A DNA stretch of 13,197 nt, taken from the IMG/VR virus record IMGVR_UViG_2703718841_000007. The stretch is one strand, 5' to 3'. This DNA is from a virus. Its lineage: Duplodnaviria > Heunggongvirae > Uroviricota > Caudoviricetes. Both the position numbers and the translations under genes were made by a program. The notes under the pieces were generated by a model. That model ran no database searches and was not told the DNA's origin. It worked only from the letters and a program-made list of their open reading frames with translations. This document shows, piece after piece, positions 1-10,285 of the stretch (position 1 is the stretch's first letter; each line of letters begins with the position of its first letter).

Positions 1-25
1 TCCTTTATATTGAGTGTATCGCCAA

Positions 26-50
26 CGCGCCTTCGGGCGCGTTTTATTTA
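26..50 (+). terminator. Intrinsic-terminator-like hairpin with T-rich tail
   Basis: Read directly: stem CGCGCC (26-31) / GGCGCG (36-41), TTCG loop (32-35), then TTTTATTTA (42-50). Would end a plus-strand transcript entering from the left. Confidence 0.5.
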
Positions 51-120
51 CCTGTAGCACATTGAAATAAAAGGATTTATCTCAACAAACGTCCACATAG
101 TGACCACATCGACAATACAA

Positions 121-143
121 ACCCCGTTTCGACGGGGTTTCTT
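121..143 (+). terminator. GC hairpin (ACCCCGT-TTCG-ACGGGGT) followed by TTCTT; possible second terminator or attenuator
   Basis: Read directly: 7-bp stem 121-127 / 132-138, TTCG tetraloop, weak T tail. It ends 5 nt before the first in-frame ATG of the next ORF, which argues against 144 as the true start. Confidence 0.35.
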
Positions 144-1331
144 ATGCGTGTCAATAAGTCCACAGAGCATTCCCGACATCCGCAAAAAATGTTAACATCC
201 ATAAAAACACCAAGCGTAATTATTATAATGAAATATATTTTTGAATACGGACTTTATCTCAGCATACTTATAGCGACAATATATGTCACTTCTAAGTTAT
301 TGGGTATTACACCTGCAAAACATAAATACGCCTCGCTTGATGGCTTACGTGGAATTTGTGCAGCAATGGTTGCTGTATTCCATCTTTACTGGAGAGCCGG
401 AGGAGAATCAGATATATACTGGTCTCTTGAGTACATTACACTCAGCAATGTAAAACGCGCCATATATCTAACAGGAGAGTTATCTGTTGGGGTCTTTTTT
501 ATGCTGTCTGCTTTTTTATTTTTCAAAAAGGCACTAGCGGACTCCTTCGATGTAAAAAGCTTTGCAATTTCACGATTCATGCGAATTTACCCACCTGTAG
601 TTGTTCTTTTATTTATAATATATATTGCAACATTTATCATGAATCCGGATAACCATACTCCAGTATCGCAATGGTTTATATCTTCATTACCATTTATATT
701 CAATCCGCCTGGCGCTAACATCAATGGTGTATCGCTCCAGATTGCCACATCTGGTGTGTTCTGGACGTTAGTCTGGGAATTACGCCTATACCTTGCAATT
801 CCATTTTTATATCTGATAATGAAAAACATCAAATATAAAGAAGCATTTGTTATTTTTTTAATGGGATGTGTTTTATTATTCAAGTATTTTATAAACAATG
901 AACAACACCTGAGTTATATAATGTATTTCCTTGCAGGATTTCTTGTCGCTACAATCAAGAGCAACAAGCGCCCATCAGATATAATCTGCGCTTTATTATT
1001 ATTCGCAGCCATATATTTTACTCGACATGCTTACAACACTACAACTCCGCTTTATATGTTTATTGTTTTCTACACAATAAAGTGCGGATGTGATTACTTT
1101 GGCTTACTTACATCCCTGCCTGTAACTATGCTGGGAACCTGCAGTTTCTCCCTTTATTTAGTTCATGGGATAACTCAAACAGTATCTAAACATTATTTAT
1201 ATAGTGCAGGAAACTATGTTTGGCAGATTTGTGCAATTATTGCGGCAGGTATCATTGCGCCGGTTATGTACAAATATGTCGAAAGTCGCAGCATCATACA
1301 TAAGCGTCCTCAACTTCAGATTGCAAAGTAG
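144..1331 (+). CDS. Integral membrane acyltransferase, acyltransferase-3 family (OafA/Oac-like O-acetyltransferase type)
   Basis: Long ORF that is highly hydrophobic throughout. Family-typical N-terminal motif YASLDGLRGICAAMVAVFHL and FFMLSAFLFF segment. Strongly AT-rich (one 60-nt line, 601-660, hand-counted at 15 G+C). True start is uncertain: ATGs at 144, 189 and 228, none with a good Shine-Dalgarno. Confidence 0.75.
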   Translation: MRVNKSTEHSRHPQKMLTSIKTPSVIIIMKYIFEYGLYLSILIATIYVTSKLLGITPAKHKYASLDGLRGICAAMVAVFHLYWRAGGESDIYWSLEYITLSNVKRAIYLTGELSVGVFFMLSAFLFFKKALADSFDVKSFAISRFMRIYPPVVVLLFIIYIATFIMNPDNHTPVSQWFISSLPFIFNPPGANINGVSLQIATSGVFWTLVWELRLYLAIPFLYLIMKNIKYKEAFVIFLMGCVLLFKYFINNEQHLSYIMYFLAGFLVATIKSNKRPSDIICALLLFAAIYFTRHAYNTTTPLYMFIVFYTIKCGCDYFGLLTSLPVTMLGTCSFSLYLVHGITQTVSKHYLYSAGNYVWQICAIIAAGIIAPVMYKYVESRSIIHKRPQLQIAK

Positions 1332-1338
1332 AACATTT

Positions 1339-1358
1339 GCGCCCCTGAACAGGGGCGC
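1339..1358 (+). terminator. Stable GC hairpin 8 nt after the acyltransferase stop, no T-tract
   Basis: Read directly: GCGCCCCT (1339-1346) / AGGGGCGC (1351-1358), loop GAAC. There is no U-run on either strand, so it may be an RNA-stabilising hairpin rather than a terminator. Confidence 0.3.
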
Positions 1359-1425
1359 TATCCCACCACGCTGTTAAAATTTTGTTTCGTCTTACTTAGC
1401 ATTTTTAAGTTGCCCATCGGAAAAA

Positions 1426-1695
1426 CGTCACAACCATCACGCCCCACAAAAAAAACCATTAACCATCTGATTATCATGAATAAATGTTGTGATGGTAAAA
1501 CCATCACAAAACGTAACGTAAACCGTCACACCCTATAAATTCAGCGAGTTATAAAACAGAGTTGTGATGTTTTAAGGCCGTCACACTGTGATGCTCTTGT
1601 GATGCTCTTGTGATGGTTTTCAATATATGAATTTACTTATACATATCATATAGATAAATGATATTTTTTAAATCTGTGATGTTTGTGACGGTTTT
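1426..1695. repeat. Iteron-like array: at least 12 copies of TGTGATG(G)/TGTGACG(G) in both orientations, with a near-perfect 25-bp palindrome and an AT-rich tract
   Basis: Read directly. CGTCACA 1426-1432 and ACCATCAC 1433-1440; palindrome GTTGTGATGG-TAAAA-CCATCACAA 1486-1510; CGTCACA 1524-1530; GTTGTGATG 1561-1569; tandem TGTGATGCTCT x2 (1587-1608) then TGTGATGGTTTT (1609-1620); TGTGATG 1675-1681 and TGTGACGG 1684-1691. AT-rich tract 1621-1672. No ORF of 60 aa or more. Confidence 0.6.
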
Positions 1696-1943
1696 CCGAT
1701 GCTCCCCCTAAATTTTTGAAAAAATTAGAAGTGGTCAGAAATCACCCTGATTTGTTGGTGGTTTTGTATATATCTCTGTTAGTGATTTGAGCATTGGTGC
1801 AGTACGTTAATGTAGGTACTGCCCCAGCCCGGTGTCCCGCTGTGCCGGGATGAACGCGATCTCGTCCATCTGGCTGTCAAATCCCTGCATTGCCCGTCTG
1901 GGCATGTTCGCAATGAGAAAATCGGTTAATGCCGTTAACTGGC

Positions 1944-3406: not shown

Positions 3407-4108
3407 TTACTCGCCTGCCGGAGGCGCGACAGGTGCCCCGATAGCTACCGCTTCTTCCGCCTCACCCAGACGGGTTTCAATAGCAGATACGCGCTTATCA
3501 ATGGCATCCAGCGCTTCAGCCAGCGCCTGTAAGGCATCAGACTGTGAAGGTTCCTGCTCCGGGGTCTGCTCCGGTTCTTCGATACTGAAAAAATGGCGCC
3601 AGCCCTTTTTCGCTGTCTTTGACATTCCCTTTTCCTTTTTAAATTCCCTGACTTCATCAAACGCCAGCGGCTTGTATGGTCCGATGCGTTTTCCCCTGGT
3701 GCGGCTGAAACGTAACCGTGTGGTGCTTACCCCGGCCGGACTGTCAGTAATGGCCAGTCCCTCAAGATAGGTTTTCCCGGTATTTCTGAAATTGCCGTCC
3801 GGTGTAAACTCCGGTGATAAAAATAAAAGCTGACCGTCTGCATTTGCCTGTAGCAATGAAATCGCCGGACAGAGGCGGGCATATAAACGAAGAATACCTT
3901 CATCATCCCGCTCGGCTTTTACTTCCAGCACCTCCCCCATATTCCCGAAATTACGGGAATGTTCCGGCCATAACAGCGCGGTATACAAAGAGGGGTCATA
4001 TAATTCAGCGGCATCAAGCAACCATTGTTCTTCAATAAATCGCTTATCAACCGTTTCACCCGCAGTGGCGATACAAATCCAGTTTGTTGCCAGTTGTGAA
4101 CCTGACAT
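3407..4108 (-). CDS. P2 gpO-like capsid scaffolding protein/protease
   Basis: GKTYLEGLAITDSPAGVSTTRL and a C-terminal coiled-coil-like region (EALDAIDKRVSAIETRLGEAEE) resemble the gpO family. The track ORF starts at GTG 4168, but the ATG at 4108 has a perfect GGAGG 5 nt upstream and is preferred. Shorter than my recollection of P2 gpO (about 284 aa). Confidence 0.7.
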   Translation of the reverse strand: MSGSQLATNWICIATAGETVDKRFIEEQWLLDAAELYDPSLYTALLWPEHSRNFGNMGEVLEVKAERDDEGILRLYARLCPAISLLQANADGQLLFLSPEFTPDGNFRNTGKTYLEGLAITDSPAGVSTTRLRFSRTRGKRIGPYKPLAFDEVREFKKEKGMSKTAKKGWRHFFSIEEPEQTPEQEPSQSDALQALAEALDAIDKRVSAIETRLGEAEEAVAIGAPVAPPAGE

Positions 4109-4251
4109 ATTGCCTCCGTTCATGCTGCGGTTTTCAGTATCGCCAATAAAATTAACCGCCGCATTCACTTCATTTCGGATATAGGCTATTAGCCGAACAC
4201 ATCAGAAATAAAGCGGGATTTAATATACAAACGCCCGTGCATAATGTGTGC

Positions 4252-5496
4252 ATGGCTAAATATTCAGAAGAATTAAAAGGCGTTGCGCGGGCGCTTTATT
4301 TAAAACGCTATACCCCGCAGGAAATTGCCAGCGAACTTAATCTGCCTAACAGACGCATTGTCTATTACTGGGCGGAGAAATATTGCTGGGCGGAATTACT
4401 CAGTCATGAATCCACCGAAGATGCATTAAACCGTCGCATTCAGTCACTGACATTACGTGAAGGGAAATCGGAGCTGGAGCTGCGGGAGCTGGACAGTCTC
4501 GTTTCTCACCTGGTGAAACTACGTGCACAGCACAATAAGCATCAGGAAAAGCTGGCAGAAATTAAACACAGTGAAAATGATGCGCCGGCGCGTCAGTCCG
4601 GTGGCGACGAAAAGCCCCGGAAACGTGGCAAGTACAAAAAGAACGACATCAGCGGACTGACACAGGAAGATTTTGACCGGTTCGCGCTGGAGCACCTTTT
4701 CGGTTACCAGAAACACCTTCGCGCTAATCTTCATCAGCAAATCAGGAACATCCTGAAAAGCCGCCAGATTGGTGCAACCTGGTATTTCTCAATAGAAGCC
4801 TTTGAGAATGCGGTCATGACAGGCGATCCGCAAATCTTCCTGTCCGCATCAAAGGCTCAGGCGGAAGTATTCCGCAGCTATATCGTCAACATTGCGGAGC
4901 AGTATTTCGGCGTGGAGCTGACGGGAAACCCCATCCGCCTCTCCAACGGCGCGGAGATGCGATTCCTGTCCACCAACAAGAACACCGCCCAGTCATACAG
5001 CGGCCATCTGTACTGCGATGAATATTTCTGGGTACCCAACTTTGCAAAATTAAACGAAGTGGCCAGCGCGATGGCCACACACGACAAATGGCGAACCACC
5101 TACTTTTCCACCCCCAGCAGCAAAACGCACCAGGCGTACCCGTTCTGGACTGGTGAAGAATGGAAGCGCGGTGACAAAAAACGCGCGCGCGTACAATTTC
5201 CCACGGAGAAGGAGCTGCGCGACGGTGGACGGTTATGTCCTGATGGGCAGTGGCGCTACATCATCACAATGGAAGACGCGATCGCAGGCGGGTTTAATCT
5301 CGCCAGCATCGGGAAGCTGCGCAACCGCTACAACCGCGACACTTTCAACATGCTGTATATGTGCGTGTTCGTGGACAGCAAGGACAGCGTATTTTCGTTC
5401 TCTCACGTAGAACGCTGCTGTGTAGATCCGGATATGACAATGAAGCGGAACACTGGACGCTCCCGATTGACCGGCTGGCGCTGGCGCAACTGGTGA
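4252..5496 (+). CDS. P2 gpP-like terminase large (ATPase) subunit, C-terminally truncated; probable pseudogene
   Basis: N-terminal HTH-like region, then KSRQIGATWYF (Walker A-like), FLSAS, DEYFWVP (Walker B-like) and YFSTPSS...PFWTGE typical of the gpP family. Family resemblance stops near 5427 (...HVERCCVD) and the ORF ends after a 23-aa unrelated tail. It has about 415 aa against about 590 in P2 gpP (recalled), so the C-terminal nuclease domain is absent. The GTG at 4237 is an alternative start. Confidence 0.65.
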   Translation: MAKYSEELKGVARALYLKRYTPQEIASELNLPNRRIVYYWAEKYCWAELLSHESTEDALNRRIQSLTLREGKSELELRELDSLVSHLVKLRAQHNKHQEKLAEIKHSENDAPARQSGGDEKPRKRGKYKKNDISGLTQEDFDRFALEHLFGYQKHLRANLHQQIRNILKSRQIGATWYFSIEAFENAVMTGDPQIFLSASKAQAEVFRSYIVNIAEQYFGVELTGNPIRLSNGAEMRFLSTNKNTAQSYSGHLYCDEYFWVPNFAKLNEVASAMATHDKWRTTYFSTPSSKTHQAYPFWTGEEWKRGDKKRARVQFPTEKELRDGGRLCPDGQWRYIITMEDAIAGGFNLASIGKLRNRYNRDTFNMLYMCVFVDSKDSVFSFSHVERCCVDPDMTMKRNTGRSRLTGWRWRNW

Positions 5497-6332
5497 ACCT
5501 GAACGCGCAGCACGGCGGTGTGCTGTATGCCCGTCGCAATATGGTGACGGCAAACTATAAAGACGGCGGACTGACGCATGAACAGCTTGGTGCAGCCGTG
5601 TTCGACTGGCTGACCTTCGGTGATGTGGCCATTCTGAAAGTGCGTAACGGCTGGGGGGATGTGGTGGCACTGTACCCGCTGCCGGCACTCTATACCCGCC
5701 AGCGTAAGACCGGGGAGTTTGTGGTACTGCAGCAGGGTGAACCGATGATTTATCCGCCTGAAGATATTATTTTTCTCAGGCAGTACGATCCGCAACAGGC
5801 GATTTATGGTCTGCCGGATTATATCAGCGGTATCCATTCTGCCCTGCTTAACGGTGAGGCAACAATTTTTCGTCGGCGTTACTACCATAACGGCGGACAC
5901 ACAGGTGGCATGATCTACTGTAACGACCCAAATATGACTGATGAAGTGGAAGAAGAAATTATTCAGAAGCTGGAGCAGTCAAAGGGGATCGGGAACTTCA
6001 GCACCATGTTTGTGAACATCCCCAAAGGCGATCCGGACGGCATCAAATTTATCCCGATTGGGGATATCAGCGCCAAAGATGAGTTTCAGAACATCAAGAG
6101 CATCAGCGCCCAGGACGTACTGACCGCGCATCGATTCCCGGCAGGACTGGCGGGGATTATCCCGACGAACGGCGCAGTAATGGGAGATGTTGAGAAAGCG
6201 TCCAAAACCTACCGCAAAGCAGAAATTTTGCCCATTCAGCGCATGTTTACCGCCGCAGTGGAACAGGAAAGTGATGTACCGCCCCACCTGTACCTTAATT
6301 TCCTGAAAGACAGTGAGCTGGAAGGTGATTAA
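5361..6332 (+). CDS. P2 gpQ-like portal protein, N-terminally truncated and out of frame with the upstream P-like ORF; probable pseudogene
   Basis: IYGLPDYISGIHSALLNGEATIFRRRYYHNGGHTGG and the downstream KGIGNF...DGIKFIPIGDISAKDEFQNIKSISAQDVLTAHRFPAGL resemble the gpQ portal family. Resemblance begins about 25-35 residues into this frame-3 ORF, which overlaps the end of the frame-1 P-like ORF. The listed start is a GTG chosen by the ORF caller, not a credible initiation site. Confidence 0.6.
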   Translation: MRVRGQQGQRIFVLSRRTLLCRSGYDNEAEHWTLPIDRLALAQLVNLNAQHGGVLYARRNMVTANYKDGGLTHEQLGAAVFDWLTFGDVAILKVRNGWGDVVALYPLPALYTRQRKTGEFVVLQQGEPMIYPPEDIIFLRQYDPQQAIYGLPDYISGIHSALLNGEATIFRRRYYHNGGHTGGMIYCNDPNMTDEVEEEIIQKLEQSKGIGNFSTMFVNIPKGDPDGIKFIPIGDISAKDEFQNIKSISAQDVLTAHRFPAGLAGIIPTNGAVMGDVEKASKTYRKAEILPIQRMFTAAVEQESDVPPHLYLNFLKDSELEGD

Positions 6333-6385
6333 TGTTCGCAAAAAGGCTAAAATATCATCGTTTTCCAACTTCCGGAGCGATGGAT

Positions 6386-6661
6386 ATGCGGGTAATGAAG
6401 GTTTACTGTCCGGTATGTGAGGCAAGGGCTGTTATCAAAAAAACAGCCCGAAAACACAAGGAACTGTCGGATTTATATTGCGCGTGTACCGATGTTGAAT
6501 GTGGTCACACTTTTGTGATGAATATGACATTCTCACATACCATCAGCCCCAGCGCCAAATCCAGCGATGCGTTGATCGCCACTATCTGTAACAGCCTTGA
6601 TATCCAGCAAAAGCAGCTGATGTTAAAGTTTCTGAGTCAGGACGGCACTGCTGCCGCATAG
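6386..6661 (+). CDS. ogr: Ogr/Delta-family zinc-finger late-gene transcriptional activator
   Basis: Exact C-x2-C-x22-C-x4-C spacing (CPVC...CACTDVEC) as in P2 Ogr. The ATG at 6386 has GGAG 8 nt upstream. The frame is open from the ATG at 6332, which overlaps the portal stop as TAATG; another ATG at 6395 would give an MKVYCPVC N-terminus, closest to Ogr. Confidence 0.8.
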   Translation: MRVMKVYCPVCEARAVIKKTARKHKELSDLYCACTDVECGHTFVMNMTFSHTISPSAKSSDALIATICNSLDIQQKQLMLKFLSQDGTAAA

Positions 6662-6692
6662 AAAAAAGCACCGCTACCGGTGCTTTTATTTT
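6662..6692. terminator. Bidirectional intrinsic terminator
   Basis: A-run 6662-6667, stem GCACCG (6668-6673) / CGGTGC (6678-6683), loop CTAC, T-run TTTTATTTT 6684-6692. Confidence 0.75.
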
Positions 6693-6742
6693 CTGAGATG
6701 TAACAGATTCCCATCTATCAACGTCGATGAATGACCAAGTGA

Positions 6743-6800
6743 TTAATAGTCCCCCCCTCCTAAACATGATATTATCTTTCCAAATTTTGGGAGGCATCTT
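6743..6800 (+). promoter_or_regulatory. Putative promoter and RBS of the glycosyltransferase-like cargo gene (extended -10 TGaTATTAT; C7 tract upstream; GGGAGG Shine-Dalgarno)
   Basis: Read directly: TGATATTAT at 6767-6775 (extended -10-like), C7 homopolymer 6751-6757 where a -35 would lie, GGGAGG 6789-6794 six nt before the ATG at 6801. No confident -35. Confidence 0.35.
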
Positions 6801-7520
6801 ATGTTAATAGTCTCAGTTCTTAAATGTAGTAAAGAGTTTACCCCTAAACACGCCCAATGGCTTCATCGTCAGTTCAAAGATATTCCATCTATATGTTTAA
6901 CCGATGCAGATAATATTCCTGGAGTTAACACAACCCCTTTGCTTTATAACTGGCCGGGATGGTGGTCTAAAATTGAACTATTTAATCCTAATCACCCAGT
7001 CCTTGGAGACCAAGATTTACTCTATTTTGACGTAGATGTTGTGGTCACGGGAGATATTCATATTTTCGAAGGTGCGAAGAAATTTACAATGCTTCGGGAG
7101 TTTAACCATGCCTCAAGAGTAAACTCATCAATAATGATGATTCCGGCGTCGATTAAAAAGACGATTTGGGAACAATTCATTATTGATCCTGAGAAAATTA
7201 TGCGCAATTGTCAGACTGAAGACAAATGGGGTGATCAGGGATTTCTCGGTAGCATCATAAAACCAGCCCTATGGCAGGATATCATTCCTGGCTCAATTGT
7301 TAGTTATAAATGTGACATCGCCACCCCCTCGATGATTGGCTTCAATGCAAATTTAGCCTCTGAGGCTGCGACAGGGAAAGTCCCTGATAATGTGGCGGTT
7401 GTTTGCTTTCATGGCAGTCCACGCCCCTGGCGTACTGGTTTTGATTGGGTTCCTTCGTTTTCCCTGCGGGATACTCTGTACGGTAAATTAAAGAACTTTA
7501 AAATAAGAATGAAGCAATAA
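6801..7520 (+). CDS. GT-A-fold glycosyltransferase-like protein (GT8-like DxD and H-x-G-x-x-[KR]-P-W motifs); accessory/cargo gene
   Basis: LYFDVDVVV (DxD, about residue 75) and CFHGSPRPW (about residue 212) match the two signature motifs of retaining GT8-type transferases (LgtC/WaaJ type), with similar inter-motif spacing. Strong Shine-Dalgarno. AT-rich relative to neighbours (60-nt lines hand-counted: 6841-6900 has 24 G+C, 7141-7200 has 21 G+C). Convergent with the primase gene. Confidence 0.5.
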   Translation: MLIVSVLKCSKEFTPKHAQWLHRQFKDIPSICLTDADNIPGVNTTPLLYNWPGWWSKIELFNPNHPVLGDQDLLYFDVDVVVTGDIHIFEGAKKFTMLREFNHASRVNSSIMMIPASIKKTIWEQFIIDPEKIMRNCQTEDKWGDQGFLGSIIKPALWQDIIPGSIVSYKCDIATPSMIGFNANLASEAATGKVPDNVAVVCFHGSPRPWRTGFDWVPSFSLRDTLYGKLKNFKIRMKQ

Positions 7521-7588
7521 AGATAACGCCCCTATTGCTTCAATGTTCGCTCCTTCCCCTAACAATAAAGTTAGGCACTAGTGAACCG

Positions 7589-10246
7589 TTACTTTTCCCG
7601 GCCAAATATCCAGCAGCGGAATGTTTCCGGCATCCGTTGCATATCCCCTTTACCACGATTATGGCGCTCACTTACCGCGCTGCGCGTGGTGCTTTGTCTG
7701 ATAAACCGGCGCTCATTGCCGTTTTTAAGCAGCTTTTTAATTTCCGTTAACGTGAACGGAATACGCTGCCGGTGTGCTGCGGCGACCTCTTCCATGTGAT
7801 TGAAATTAACCGCGATTTCATTTTCATCTGATGAATGATTGATGCCATAAGGTGCCAGTTCATCCAAGTAATCAAACAGCTCCCAGAACTCCTGCACCAG
7901 AGGATGATCCTTTTTAAGTGCCTGACAACGTTCAACGGCCAGCGCGGTGATGGCTTCACGCGTTTTTTCTATACGTTCAACCGGCACCGGTACAACAAGT
8001 GCAAGCGCCTCCAGCAAGCCCACAAGCTGCGCGTGATTCTTTGCAATACGGATATGGCGAATACTGCTATTAGACTCCAGCTCATTCCTAGCTCGCTCGT
8101 ACCCCCTGCCGAACGTCTGCATGATTTCTTTTTCGCGCATGGTGGCCAGTAATGTGAATCCGGATACCTGGCTAACGGGGAGTTGTTCAAGTCGTTCTGC
8201 AGCGTGGCGCGTCTGAATGGACTGGCCGCGCTTGTCGGTATAGATGTGGATGATACGCTCCAGAAACGCCTTGCTGCCGTCTGTGTCGGCATTTTGCGCT
8301 ATCACAATACTTCCCCTGAACGGCGGCTCATACGTCTCGTTATTGTTCGATTTGATACCCACGGCGCGGGAGGCACGACCGTTATACAGTGATTTCAGCT
8401 CGTCCCAGTCAAAAGCGCGTTGCTTGGCGTTATCGGTAGTACGGTCGCCCTCAATCAGCACAACCGGCAGATTACCGACCTGGGCGAAGTTACGGCCACG
8501 CGCGGCGGCGGTAGATTTAGATGGGTCAAACCCTTCGTATTCCTCACGGCCGGCGAGCTTCCAGAGAAATTCTATCAGCGTGGATTTACCTGTCCCCGGC
8601 TCGCCCACGATTTCCAGAAACGGAAATGACTTGTCACGCTCGCGGATTTGTTCGGCAAACAGCGACCCCAGCCAGAACGCCAGAGCCACATACCCTTTTT
8701 CACCAAATGCCGTCCAGATATCGTCTACCCAACCCGTAGTAAACTCGTTCAGCTTCGGATTCAGATCCAGCGCCGGCGTGAGGCTCAGGCTCTTAACACT
8801 GGCACTGTTGATTTCGAAGTAATCCTCGTCGTTCATCTCATACAGCCGGCCATCGCAAACGGCCACGCGGTTAAACAACCAGGCGGCATAATCCTTGTTA
8901 TAGCCGATGAAATTCTGCGTCTTTACCTCTTTGATTTCAGGGAGGCGCATCTGGATGAACTTATCCAGCTGTTTGGTGCTGCCTGTGTACACCGCCCCTT
9001 TGGCGATGTGCAGCAGACGCTTTTTGAACTCGGCGGAGCTGGTGAGCTGATTAGCCGTGAAAGTATCTTTCACGGCTGGCCGGTTAGGCATACTGACTTT
9101 CACGTAATACCAGGACTCGTCCGTAGGTTCAGACCGCTGAAAGTAAAGCGGCGTCAGCCAGCAGTTAGCTATTTCGGTCACGCCGCCTGACTCTTTAACC
9201 GCCCGTTCTTTGGCCTCCCACTCCATCACCACTTCGGTACCGGTATTGGTGATGCGCTCATAGGCTCGCATATACCTGTCCAGATCCAGCTCAAACCAGT
9301 ACATGCGGGAGTTATGCTCAAAGTAGAACGAGTGCCACTCGTTATGCTGATGCATGAGCAGCGCTTTCTCAGTCGGGCTTTTTGCCAGAAGGAGATCGCC
9401 ATAGTAGCGATAATTTTTAATGTCCGACTTACTGAACCGGTTACGTAACAACAGGTCATTCCAGTCCAGCGATGCCGATGATTTCACCGGCTGCGCGGCA
9501 CGAGTTTTCCATCCTGCAGCATCACTACGGGCAGCGAACGCCAGTGTGTGCTTTGTGCCGGCTTTATCGCCGTCAAACGCCCATACAAGACGTGGACGTG
9601 GTTTTTCACCCAGTTCTTTGGCCAGCGTATCCAGTGCGGCCAGCGGATAGTTGTTACTGCTCAGTGTGGCAACTGCAGGTAACCCTGCCTGGCACAGACT
9701 CAGCGCGTTGAAGATTCCCTCAGTGATCCAGATTTCGTTCACTTCCTGCAGGTTGATAAAGGGAGGAACCCACCAGTGACCGACATAGCTTCCCCTGATG
9801 TTGGCTTTCTGCTTACCGAAGCGCTGCGGCTGGTCAATGATGCGCTCCCATGTTGCACCGCATGACAGCGAAAATCTGACCGTTGCCGACCCCATGCCAT
9901 CTTTCACGAATGCACCCTGGGTAAAACAGCCTTTTAATGGCTCAGTCTCCAGCCCTCTGGCCTCGCGCAGATACGCCTCAGCTACTGCATGGGGGTTATC
10001 TTCTGTGGTCTGGTAACGTTTTGACCAGTCTTCAAAGATATCCGGATACAGCTCTTTCACGACAATCTGATGTGCGCAGTTATTTTCACGGCCACATTTC
10101 AGAATCCAGGGCTTTTCTATGCTGGTAAATAATTCGCGCTTACGACAGGCAGGGCAAACGCCCTGCTGCAAATACTTATCCCGCTCTTTAAATTCAAAGT
10201 CCCGAACAAGACGGCGCACAACGTCCTGTTGTATCGTTTCGTTCAT
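7589..10246 (-). CDS. P4-alpha-type bifunctional DNA primase/helicase (zinc-binding plus TOPRIM primase, P-loop helicase, C-terminal domain)
   Basis: CPACRK...CGRENNC zinc motif; TOPRIM-like ITEGIFNALSL and WAFDGDKAG; Walker A IVGEPGTGKST. One 60-nt line (8461-8520) hand-counted at 38 G+C. The ORF is open from TTG 10282; the first ATG is 10246; neither has a good Shine-Dalgarno. This is not a P2 A-type rolling-circle initiator. Confidence 0.8.
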   Translation of the reverse strand: MNETIQQDVVRRLVRDFEFKERDKYLQQGVCPACRKRELFTSIEKPWILKCGRENNCAHQIVVKELYPDIFEDWSKRYQTTEDNPHAVAEAYLREARGLETEPLKGCFTQGAFVKDGMGSATVRFSLSCGATWERIIDQPQRFGKQKANIRGSYVGHWWVPPFINLQEVNEIWITEGIFNALSLCQAGLPAVATLSSNNYPLAALDTLAKELGEKPRPRLVWAFDGDKAGTKHTLAFAARSDAAGWKTRAAQPVKSSASLDWNDLLLRNRFSKSDIKNYRYYGDLLLAKSPTEKALLMHQHNEWHSFYFEHNSRMYWFELDLDRYMRAYERITNTGTEVVMEWEAKERAVKESGGVTEIANCWLTPLYFQRSEPTDESWYYVKVSMPNRPAVKDTFTANQLTSSAEFKKRLLHIAKGAVYTGSTKQLDKFIQMRLPEIKEVKTQNFIGYNKDYAAWLFNRVAVCDGRLYEMNDEDYFEINSASVKSLSLTPALDLNPKLNEFTTGWVDDIWTAFGEKGYVALAFWLGSLFAEQIRERDKSFPFLEIVGEPGTGKSTLIEFLWKLAGREEYEGFDPSKSTAAARGRNFAQVGNLPVVLIEGDRTTDNAKQRAFDWDELKSLYNGRASRAVGIKSNNNETYEPPFRGSIVIAQNADTDGSKAFLERIIHIYTDKRGQSIQTRHAAERLEQLPVSQVSGFTLLATMREKEIMQTFGRGYERARNELESNSSIRHIRIAKNHAQLVGLLEALALVVPVPVERIEKTREAITALAVERCQALKKDHPLVQEFWELFDYLDELAPYGINHSSDENEIAVNFNHMEEVAAAHRQRIPFTLTEIKKLLKNGNERRFIRQSTTRSAVSERHNRGKGDMQRMPETFRCWIFGREK

Positions 10247-10285
10247 AAATAATCCAGATGTGAAATAATGGGTAAAAGGCAAAAA

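Follow-up and report, generated by a model that had tools for sequence, protein, structure and literature searches.

A PmgQ-like glycosyltransferase gene in the accessory slot of a defective P2-type prophage, with a possible role in LPS-core modification

P2-type phages have a published hot spot for accessory and defence genes between gpA and gpQ (PMC9122126, PMC13586616), and neither of these two papers mentions a glycosyltransferase (GT)-type enzyme. The Gtr systems of prophages (GtrA/GtrB/GtrC) change LPS sugars and block superinfection through three membrane proteins (a GT2 enzyme, a flippase, and a GT-C enzyme) that work in the periplasm via Und-P-glucose. In mycobacteriophages of the Che8 and Corndog type, virion glycosylation is encoded by phage glycosyltransferase genes in structural operons, often with methyltransferases. 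The P1 genes pmgO-pmgP-ppp-pmgQ make up a late operon under a late promoter. For twenty years pmgO, pmgP, and pmgQ have carried the label "putative morphogenetic"; they are not needed for plaque formation (PMC10695390). We found no functional study of PmgQ, HdmD, pmgO/pmgP, WaaZ/WabI, or a prophage GT8 in the literature.

The window analyzed here (13,197 nt, IMG/VR record IMGVR_UViG_2703718841_000007) derives from a defective P2-type Escherichia coli prophage inserted between pheL and raiA. It carries a gene for a GT8-like glycosyltransferase of 239 aa (6801-7520, + strand), a single ORF with an ATG start, whose product is a PHROG 1962 member and a homolog of P1 PmgQ. A first-pass annotation of 6694-7588, a range that comprises this ORF and the intergenic flank on either side, proposed LPS conversion, glycosylation of a phage or host protein, and an anti-phage effector as candidate roles. 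Among these, the sequence data favor LPS conversion. Our preferred reading, to which we assign a probability of roughly 0.45, is that the gene encodes a cytoplasmic hexosyltransferase acting on the LPS core, leading to lysogenic conversion or phage exclusion.

The gene order around the GT gene is Q - ogr - terminator - GT - primase. The slot is bordered on the left by an ogr/delta-type zinc-finger late activator gene (6332-6661, + strand; Pfam Ogr_Delta, E 1.1e-15), which sits directly after the portal gene and follows Q in 50/50 related loci that extend past Q and align closely. The right border is a replication gene encoding a Toprim primase with a DUF5906/helicase-like part (7589-10282, - strand; Pfam, and RefSeq 'toprim domain-containing protein'), with which the GT gene is convergent. 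The gene had been placed next after the packaging block and a terminator; a terminator does precede it, but ogr lies between the portal gene and that terminator. The ogr-to-primase interval measures between 48 bp and 2.1 kb across 52 related elements. Some close relatives have nothing in it; others have a P2 Old homolog (PADLOC E 1.7e-215), a YafO toxin, DUF2528, or uncharacterized proteins 281-330 aa long, bearing out the earlier view of a variable P2-type slot. The match to the published gpA-gpQ hot spot is supported, and the GT gene is best explained as an exchangeable accessory gene in this portal/ogr-to-replication-gene hot spot.

The GC content of the ORF (0.41) and of its upstream spacer (0.40) differs from that of P'-Q-ogr (0.51) and of the primase gene (0.52), consistent with the single AT-rich, stand-alone gene described in the first pass. 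The strong Shine-Dalgarno sequence reported there, GGGAGG, was found at 6789-6794 (+ strand), 6 nt before the ATG. At 6664-6687 lies a hairpin whose 10-bp stem has five GC pairs and which is followed by ATTTTC; because an A-run precedes it and a T-run follows it, it looks bidirectional, and the expected layout of a bidirectional terminator, the cargo gene, and a convergent replication gene holds. This hairpin looks as if it ends the P'-Q-ogr transcript and insulates the GT cargo gene. A second, terminator-like hairpin for the convergent primase transcript (7510-7542, - strand; 14 pairs, then TTCTTATTTT on the - strand) overlaps the GT stop codon.

The GT gene had also been credited with promoter-like signals of its own. 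An extended -10-like element, TGaTATTAT, can be read from the sequence at 6767-6775 (+ strand) as a candidate promoter, but its -35 is poor and a consensus scan of the + strand found no sigma-70 promoter for the gene. Alignment of the upstream regions of five GT homologs revealed no conserved promoter. We count the scan result and the unconserved upstream regions against an LPS role. No dyads of the Ogr-type late promoter (TGT-N12-ACA) lie near the GT gene, and their total count is at chance level. The GT gene is co-oriented with P-Q-ogr, a late operon, and could be transcribed late by read-through from it; the shared strand, too, counts against an LPS role. The gene is real and under purifying selection. 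Pseudogene and chance-ORF readings were rejected on the basis of 602 homologs and a dN of 0.11-0.18, with saturated dS, between the gene and its relatives.

Structure and profile searches had been suggested in the first pass as checks. The AF2 model of the GT protein (pLDDT 96.5) has a GT-A (Rossmann-like) fold closest to solved GT8 structures, and its top Foldseek hits are exclusively GT8 entries and the GT8-like domain of UGGT, as anticipated. The best structural matches include the protein glycosyltransferases glycogenin, Gat1, and GlyE, a point that weighs against an LPS acceptor. The profile searches gave a split result. Searched against PDB sequences, the family profile matched Gat1 (E 2.6e-7), glycogenin (1e-5), and GlyE, with the DxD, GDQG, and C-terminal KPW regions all aligned. 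The protein itself had no match in Pfam, including PF01501, even at E <= 10, none in an NCBIfam scan, and none in a single-sequence search of the PDB sequences. The signal for GT8 likeness thus comes only from the family profile and structure comparison. When the family profile was compared with one canonical waa-locus GT8 in hhalign, the probability was 6% and the DxD region alone aligned. Because PF01501 and NCBIfam miss the protein, we call it GT8-like and not a demonstrated GT8 member.

The DxD motif FDVDVVV noted in the first pass is present, and its D77 and D79 (codons of D77-V-D79 at 7029-7037, + strand) are invariant in 56 homologs. D77-V-D79 aligns with the D-A-D of glycogenin and Gat1 and is the predicted Mn2+/UDP-sugar site. 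By conservation and alignment, G144-D145-Q146-G147 (7230-7241, + strand) would be the equivalent of the GGDQG catalytic loop of glycogenin: the 56 homologs show no variation at G144 and D145 and at least 90% conservation at Q146, and the loop aligns to the GDQG/GDTG of glycogenin/Gat1. On the same grounds, C202-F-H204-G-S-P-R-P-W210 (7404-7430, + strand) is a predicted C-terminal metal-binding/UDP motif. The FHGSPRPW stretch (residues 203-210) had been taken for the C-terminal GT8 motif; it is there, with H204, G205, and P207 invariant in the 56 homologs, but its true form is H-G-x-P-[RK]-P-W, two residues shorter than the canonical GT8 H-x-x-G-x-x-K-P-W. HMMER keeps G-x-x-K-P-W in register and places C202, not H204, opposite His212 of glycogenin. 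P1 PmgQ has F at the C202 position and retains the His.

The PHROG 1962 profile matches the GT protein with E 5.8e-81 (residues 1-223 against profile positions 1-224 of 230), and identity to P1 PmgQ is 40% over 92% of the length. At E <= 1e-10, 3,694 representatives of 50%-identity clusters match the family. No transmembrane segment was found in the GT protein. Its C-terminal helix has five basic residues and missed the hydrophobic-moment cut-off, so a membrane-anchoring amphipathic helix was dropped as evidence. The missing transmembrane segment and this basic, not strongly amphipathic helix count against the LPS reading. The gene product is best explained as a soluble, DxD/Mn2+-dependent, nucleotide-sugar glycosyltransferase of predicted GT-A fold. 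It is probably retaining, and its family is best explained as an unnamed one related to GT8 (glycogenin, Gat1, LgtC).

The nearest relatives of the gene occur as lone cargo genes at the ends of prophages. A 75%-identical gene adjoins integrase and tail fibre genes in the lambdoid phage Chlobot, and relatives with 79%, 54%, and 49% identity lie at prophage-host junctions. Close relatives occur in a pair with a hexapeptide sugar acetyltransferase, and GT4 fragments adjoin the E. albertii copy. The window gene itself is in a prophage, not a waa locus; only homologs of 43-49% identity are found in waa loci. The Pectobacterium P0034 homolog (49% identity) lies inside such a locus, in the order GT9-WaaL-GT9-GT4-Kdo kinase-PEtN transferase-like-canonical GT8-WaaZ-GT homolog-GT25, and shares one clade with the window protein (NJ bootstrap 95/100). 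In Klebsiella sp. R390, a 43% homolog adjoins waaL, a WaaZ-like gene, waaC, waaF, and hldD, and Raoultella and Morganella have the same layout. A Halomonas homolog adjoins WaaZ and a UDP-glucose dehydrogenase, and fusions of the GT family with MptE-like/WaaZ-related domains exist. Tandem GT paralogs at the relatives' loci were rejected by profile search: 125/168 proteins are true members and the rest are PmgO-/PmgP-like.

The tail-fibre end carries a second cargo gene of surface-glycan type, an Acyltransferase-3 family member (144-1331, + strand; Pfam Acyl_transf_3, E 5.9e-29). It belongs to the same insert, because its neighbors in the intact prophage are the last tail gene on one side and host raiA on the other. 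We count this gene, the waa-locus relatives, the clade with P0034, the WaaZ-related fusions, and the acetyltransferase pairing for a link to LPS. Because the closest non-phage relatives are in LPS-core clusters, the enzyme most likely alters a cell-surface sugar. That sugar could also belong to another lipid-linked or periplasmic glycan (O-antigen unit, enterobacterial common antigen, colanic acid, or capsule), whose modification would still be lysogenic conversion. The paired hexapeptide acetyltransferase, the O-antigen-acetylase-type Acyl_transf_3 gene, and the GT4 fragments beside the E. albertii copy all fit this idea. We nevertheless consider it improbable, as the chromosomal relatives occupy core (waa) loci by waaL, waaC, waaF, and WaaZ and not O-antigen or capsule loci.

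In the LPS-core reading, the enzyme would be made independently of virion production and would act at the cytoplasmic face of the inner membrane, adding an alpha-linked hexose to the lipid A-core (LPS core oligosaccharide). The change would affect a receptor structure of P2-, P1-, and many other coliphages and would result in lysogenic conversion, with superinfecting phages excluded. We infer the expression in lysogens, the donor sugar, the LPS-core acceptor, and the exclusion phenotype.

The main rival is glycosylation of the virion or of another protein, because distant relatives of the gene are located in phage head modules and late operons. An enzyme made late would modify capsid, tail, or tail-fibre proteins, as mycobacteriophage glycosyltransferases do, and would change particle stability, adsorption, or immune recognition. 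At dozens of loci in HK97-type prophages, members with 30-42% identity are found between the gene for the major capsid protein and those for head-tail connectors, accompanied by FkbM, MT24, or MT25 methyltransferases and PmgO-like partners. Late expression is suggested by the late promoter of the P1 pmgQ operon, by the phiNP relative phiNP_030 (late region, between Rz and terS), and by an Ewingella P2-like prophage, in which a four-GT cassette directly follows Q in the same operon. The 95% clade of the window protein also contains the Ewingella cassette GT. The late-operon relatives (P1, phiNP, Ewingella) and the members between capsid and connector genes also count directly against the LPS reading. 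The orientation shared with P-Q-ogr adds to the case for a virion role. Against it stand the terminator between ogr and the GT gene, the gene's own base composition, a slot otherwise filled by host-acting exclusion genes, a waa-locus gene as the nearest chromosomal relative, and the dispensability of the three P1 genes for plaque formation. P1 and P2 virions are not known to be glycosylated, which we also count against this rival. On balance, we regard virion glycosylation as unlikely.

The state of the carrier prophages bears on the same question. The window's prophage lacks the tail genes, the N gene for the capsid, and portions of O, P, and Q, yet its GT gene is intact. Two further remnants, one 186-like and one lambdoid and cut by IS1, also have an intact copy. 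The gene is thus retained in three independently degraded prophages that are unable to make virions, which we count against virion glycosylation and for an enzyme independent of virions. The 18 E. coli copies are ~100% identical and hence recent, so this retention carries little statistical weight. The P2 cos 19-mer is absent from the window.

The cargo could alternatively be a defence or counter-defence effector that glycosylates a host factor or an invader's protein, or that protects the prophage's own products. Directed at proteins or small molecules, it would block competing phages inside the cell like its slot-mates, Old and toxin-antitoxin genes. The location in the gpA-gpQ defence hot spot (PMC9122126) and the action of the closest solved relatives (Gat1, glycogenin, and GlyE) on proteins are in keeping with such an effector, as is Pseudescherichia, where family members flank invasin/Big_1 adhesin genes. 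We judge it quite unlikely: a PADLOC scan of the GT protein matched no model, a gene for a partner or sensor is lacking, an enzyme of this kind goes unmentioned in the hot-spot papers, and the waa-locus relatives and sugar acetyltransferase pairing point to glycan, not protein, acceptors.

Phage glycosyltransferases that put LPS-type sugars on 5hmC exist (10.1101/2023.12.21.572611), so the enzyme could in principle take part in DNA hypermodification by glycosylating bases. No gene for a cytosine methyltransferase, TET, or hydroxymethylase was found in the window or the intact prophage, and DNA glycosylation was rejected as highly improbable for this reason. To our knowledge, glycosylated DNA has not been reported in P1 or P2, which also speaks against it.

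If the LPS-core reading is true, one soluble enzyme suffices for a prophage to rewrite the receptor of many coliphages. Lysogenic conversion by this route would be simpler than through Gtr, with its three proteins, and the P2 hot spot would gain a non-classical "defence" that present defence finders overlook. If the product is an ordinary sugar transferase without a phage phenotype, the gene is routine prophage cargo. More broadly, and somewhat doubtfully, the PmgQ-like family, its PmgO-/PmgP-like MptE/WaaZ-related partners, and the methyltransferases may form a widespread, unrecognised phage toolkit for glycan remodelling. With it, temperate phages that adsorb to the LPS core (P1-, P2-, and lambdoid types) would mask their own receptor. 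In lysogens this would be the task of single-gene versions like the window gene; late in lytic growth, multi-gene cassettes would keep progeny from being lost on cell debris. Such a toolkit would be a glycan-based counterpart of T5 Llp. In a second, novel reading, the capsid-proximal cassettes may point to widespread glycosylation of capsids among proteobacterial HK97-type phages. These proposals offer a first concrete hypothesis for P1 pmgO, pmgP, and pmgQ, and they concern a family for which Pfam has no model, which comprises >3,600 sequence clusters and is strikingly placed by capsid genes.

Compared with CAZy GT8 enzymes (glycogenin, Gat1, LgtC, WaaJ/WaaO, and GlyE), the GT protein shares the DxD and the GDQG loop and has a similar C-terminal His...[RK]-P-W, and ~190 residues superimpose at roughly 3 Å. 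It differs in having only 11-17% identity to them, in escaping PF01501 and NCBIfam, in its shorter length (239 aa), and in the shortened His motif. With P1 PmgQ and P7 HdmD (PHROG 1962) it has in common the family and the phage-borne setting, in which the gene is non-essential for plaque formation. PmgQ is encoded in a late-promoter operon with two MptE-like proteins (PmgO and PmgP) and a phosphatase, whereas the window gene is alone, behind a terminator in an accessory hot spot, and its product has an extra basic C-terminal helix. The locus resembles P2 tin/old (Rousset et al. 2022) in its position relative to the portal and replication genes and in contents that vary among close relatives, one of which has an Old homolog in the same slot. 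Unlike in P2, ogr is fused behind Q here, a Toprim primase takes the place of gpA, and the cargo is a glycosyltransferase rather than a recognised defence system (no PADLOC match). We propose a functional analogy to prophage Gtr, in that the cargo would change LPS sugars and block superinfection. The means would differ, with one soluble GT-A enzyme and no gtrA/gtrB nearby; no GtrA, GtrB, or GT-C gene was found in the window or the intact prophage. The mycobacteriophage virion glycosylation genes resemble the head-module branch of the GT family in their arrangement. In contrast to these Che8/Corndog-type genes, the window gene lies outside the structural operon and persists where the structural genes have been deleted.

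The range 6694-7588 of the window holds a single open reading frame (6801-7520, plus strand; 239 aa, ATG start), preceded by a ribosome-binding site (GGGAGG) 6 nt upstream of the ATG, as the first-pass annotation had described. This GT8-like glycosyltransferase gene (GT gene) is a real gene, given that its product has 602 homologs and is matched by 3,694 50%-identity cluster representatives at E <= 1e-10, with dN of 0.11-0.18 against relatives and saturated dS. As had been claimed, it is AT-rich (GC 0.41, and 0.40 in the preceding spacer, vs 0.51 in P'-Q-ogr and 0.52 in the replication gene) and convergent with the Toprim/DUF5906 replication gene (7589-10282), whose terminator-like hairpin (7510-7542, minus strand) overlaps the GT gene stop codon. 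The annotation also placed it after a packaging block and a strong bidirectional terminator. The hairpin is there (6664-6687, with an A-run 5' and a T-run 3'), but an ogr/delta zinc-finger gene that had been missed (6332-6661; Pfam E 1.1e-15) lies between it and the portal gene. Of the promoter-like signals, an extended -10-like element (TGaTATTAT, 6767-6775, plus strand) can be recognized by eye. However, its -35 is poor, a consensus scan gave no sigma-70 promoter on the plus strand, no Ogr-type dyad was found near the gene, and no upstream region is conserved among homologs, so the case for its own promoter is weak.

In this phage group, as seen in the window (6329-6335) and in fetched loci L015-L065, the P-Q late operon ends with the ogr/delta-type late activator gene, which directly adjoins the portal gene, with a one-base overlap between the Q stop and the ogr start. 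P2 itself has ogr at the opposite end of the late region, beside attP.

Direct scans of the protein against Pfam, NCBIfam and PADLOC returned no match. PHROGs assigned it to phrog_1962 ("glycosyltransferase", E 5.8e-81), and tblastn found P1 PmgQ and P7 HdmD at ~40% identity. Among solved proteins, a 56-sequence family profile matched the GT8s Gat1 (2.6e-7), glycogenin (1e-5) and GlyE, and three motifs aligned with solved GT8s: the DxD previously noted (D77, D79), a GDQG loop (144-147) and the C-terminal FHGxPRPW. An AlphaFold model from the family alignment (pLDDT 96.5, pTM 0.93) has a GT-A fold, and its top Foldseek matches were all GT8 or GT8-like UGGT domains. Profile matches, aligned motifs and Foldseek matches together predict that this is a GT-A enzyme of GT8 type, although by the Pfam criterion it is not a member. 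The C-terminal motif reported at first pass is present, but its His part falls two residues short of the canonical length. In the HMMER alignment it is C202, and not the invariant H204, that faces glycogenin His212. Because P1 PmgQ lacks the Cys yet keeps the His, H204 appears the likelier metal ligand.

We fetched 52 IMG/VR loci via the portal protein and located Q, ogr, primase, exonuclease and integrase on them. In every locus that reaches beyond Q and aligns closely with it (n = 50), ogr came next after Q. The interval between the ogr and primase stop codons ran from 48 bp, where the slot is empty, up to 2.1 kb, and the contents of this slot varied among elements with 93-100% identical portal and primase. 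Besides the GT gene in the window element, occupants were a full-length P2 Old homolog (locus L028, 8511-10379; PADLOC E 1.7e-215), a YafO toxin accompanied by a partner of 199 aa (locus L038, 8388-9378), a DUF2528 protein, several small ORFs, and an uncharacterised 281-330 aa protein that recurs in three related elements (loci L021, 8395-9387; L027, 8395-9384; L061, 8586-9434; minus strand). The portal proteins of L028 and L038 are 90-95% identical to that of the window element, with primase at 94% in L028 and only 59% in L038. The 281-330 aa protein had no Pfam match and only marginal LmuB-like PADLOC matches; it is a candidate exclusion gene. These findings bear out the placement at the P2 variable locus and agree with the published gpA-gpQ hot spot (PMC9122126, PMC13586616), in the main texts of which no glycosyltransferase is mentioned. 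That other occupants are host-acting exclusion genes argues for a host-directed role of the GT gene on a surface glycan.

The survey of relatives covered 160 loci drawn from viral and genome collections, plus 10 exact-protein look-ups; a profile search of 168 proteins recognized 125 true members of the GT (PmgQ/PHROG 1962) family, 30 PmgO-like and 13 PmgP-like proteins. The closest relatives (47-100% identity) are single cargo genes at prophage ends beside tail-fibre genes, carried by the lambdoid phage Chlobot, P2-like prophages and others. In many cases a hexapeptide acetyltransferase accompanies them, and such sugar acetyltransferases again favor a surface glycan. Other relatives lie in chromosomal LPS-core loci. 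In Pectobacterium sp. B1J-3 (49% identity) the order is GT9, WaaL, GT9, GT4, Kdo kinase, sulfatase-family gene, canonical GT8, WaaZ, the homolog and GT25. In Klebsiella sp. R390 (43% identity) the homolog adjoins waaL, a WaaZ-like gene, waaC, waaF and hldD; it adjoins waaL and a WaaZ-like gene in Raoultella and Morganella, waaL in Erwinia, and a WaaZ-type gene in Halomonas. The nearest chromosomal relative is therefore a core-locus gene, and the family is tied to WaaZ-type enzymes by adjacency and by fusion: PmgP-like proteins show distant kinship with WaaZ-like (Kdo III transferase type) proteins, PmgO- and PmgP-like proteins give weak MptE-like matches, and three homologs (P0086, P0131, P0255) fuse PmgQ-like and MptE-like domains. 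Weighing all lines of evidence, we favor, at a probability of roughly 0.45, a putative modification of the LPS core by the GT gene product that would mask a phage receptor.

Glycosylation of the virion is an unlikely but serious alternative, to which late-region contexts point. Multi-enzyme late cassettes occur in P1 (pmgO-pmgP-ppp-pmgQ; L227, 3144-5702), in phiNP (three genes between Rz and terS; L228, 4466-6303) and in an Ewingella P2-like prophage (L231, 6342-8663), where Q is followed by PmgO-like, PmgP-like, PF03407 transferase and GT-family genes, then other hot-spot cargo and gpA; pmgO, pmgP and pmgQ are the module common to all three. More distant relatives (30-42% identity) lie in HK97-type prophage head modules across Proteobacteria, where the GT-family gene, a PmgO-like partner and a methyltransferase stand between capsid and connector. 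These contexts, the orientation of the GT gene with the late P-Q-ogr operon and its weak promoter evidence all count against a host-directed role. In a neighbor-joining tree (100 bootstraps) the window's immediate clade had support of 100; at 95 it grouped with the other cargo genes, with the waa-locus gene of Pectobacterium and with the Q-linked cassette gene, the last also a point against that role. The tree does not resolve the deeper placement of the Klebsiella waa genes, phiNP, P1 and the head-module branch. None of the P1 genes pmgO, pmgP and pmgQ is required for plaque formation (PMC10695390), which fits an accessory role and favors no single reading.

The capsid-connector cassette recurs in alpha-, beta- and gammaproteobacteria (~4000-7000 in loci L086, L155, L100, L105, L121, L165 and many others), combining a PmgQ-like GT, a PmgO-like MptE-related protein and an FkbM, MT24 or MT25 methyltransferase. 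This has the look of a conserved glycosylation module near the capsid gene, of which we know no description. In Pseudescherichia, family members lie beside invasin/Big_1 adhesin genes; PmgQ-, PmgP- and PmgO-like genes flank adhesin genes of very large size, with invasin/Big_1 and RCC1 repeats (L170-L174, L183, L014), hinting at adhesin glycosylation by the trio. Contigs binned to Saccharibacteria and Patescibacteria (L186, L204, L214), groups not known to have LPS, carry family members as well; if the binning is correct, the family is not limited to LPS acceptors. Modification of another surface glycan by the window enzyme seems improbable. Slightly less so is an effector acting on a protein target: the best structural matches include protein-glycosylating enzymes, which weighs against a surface-glycan role. 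Other readings share the remaining probability.

The prophage of the window, from E. coli, sits between pheL and raiA and is 100% identical to copies in strains PSJ-12 and 23CRST024; of 5,426 complete E. coli genomes, only 18 have the element. It is defective: measured against the intact version of strain NT1F10, it lacks the entire tail module (junction near 1815), capsid gene N together with a part of O (near 3443-3451), and the sequence from the 3' end of P into the 5' end of Q (near 5433-5435). The two internal junctions fall in overlaps of 9 and 3 bases between neighboring BLAST alignments. Both cargo genes are intact despite the deletions: the GT gene and an acyltransferase-3 gene of O-antigen acetylase type (144-1331), which lies within the insert at its tail-fibre end, beside host raiA. 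E. coli BY63, BY68 and I3 match window 1-1818, with the acyltransferase-3 gene; the remainder of the window is unmatched there. This second gene supports a host-directed role on a surface glycan, as does the intact GT ORF in three independently degraded prophages incapable of making virions, namely those of the window, of strain Combat13F7 (a 186-like remnant) and of strain SW070917 (a lambdoid remnant cut by IS1). The absence of enzymes that would generate 5hmC makes DNA glycosylation unlikely.

Genomic context makes it possible that phages hold a toolkit for masking their own LPS receptor, and that capsid glycosylation is common in proteobacterial phages. The slot of the GT gene is the known P2 hot spot. 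The protein clearly belongs to the PmgQ/PHROG 1962 family, which databases label "glycosyltransferase" and for which, to our knowledge, there is no functional characterisation. It is predicted to work like GT8 transferases, yet falls outside their Pfam family. The proposed outcome would parallel Gtr-type lysogenic conversion, but the Gtr machinery comprises three membrane proteins, whereas the window encodes one unrelated, soluble GT-A enzyme.
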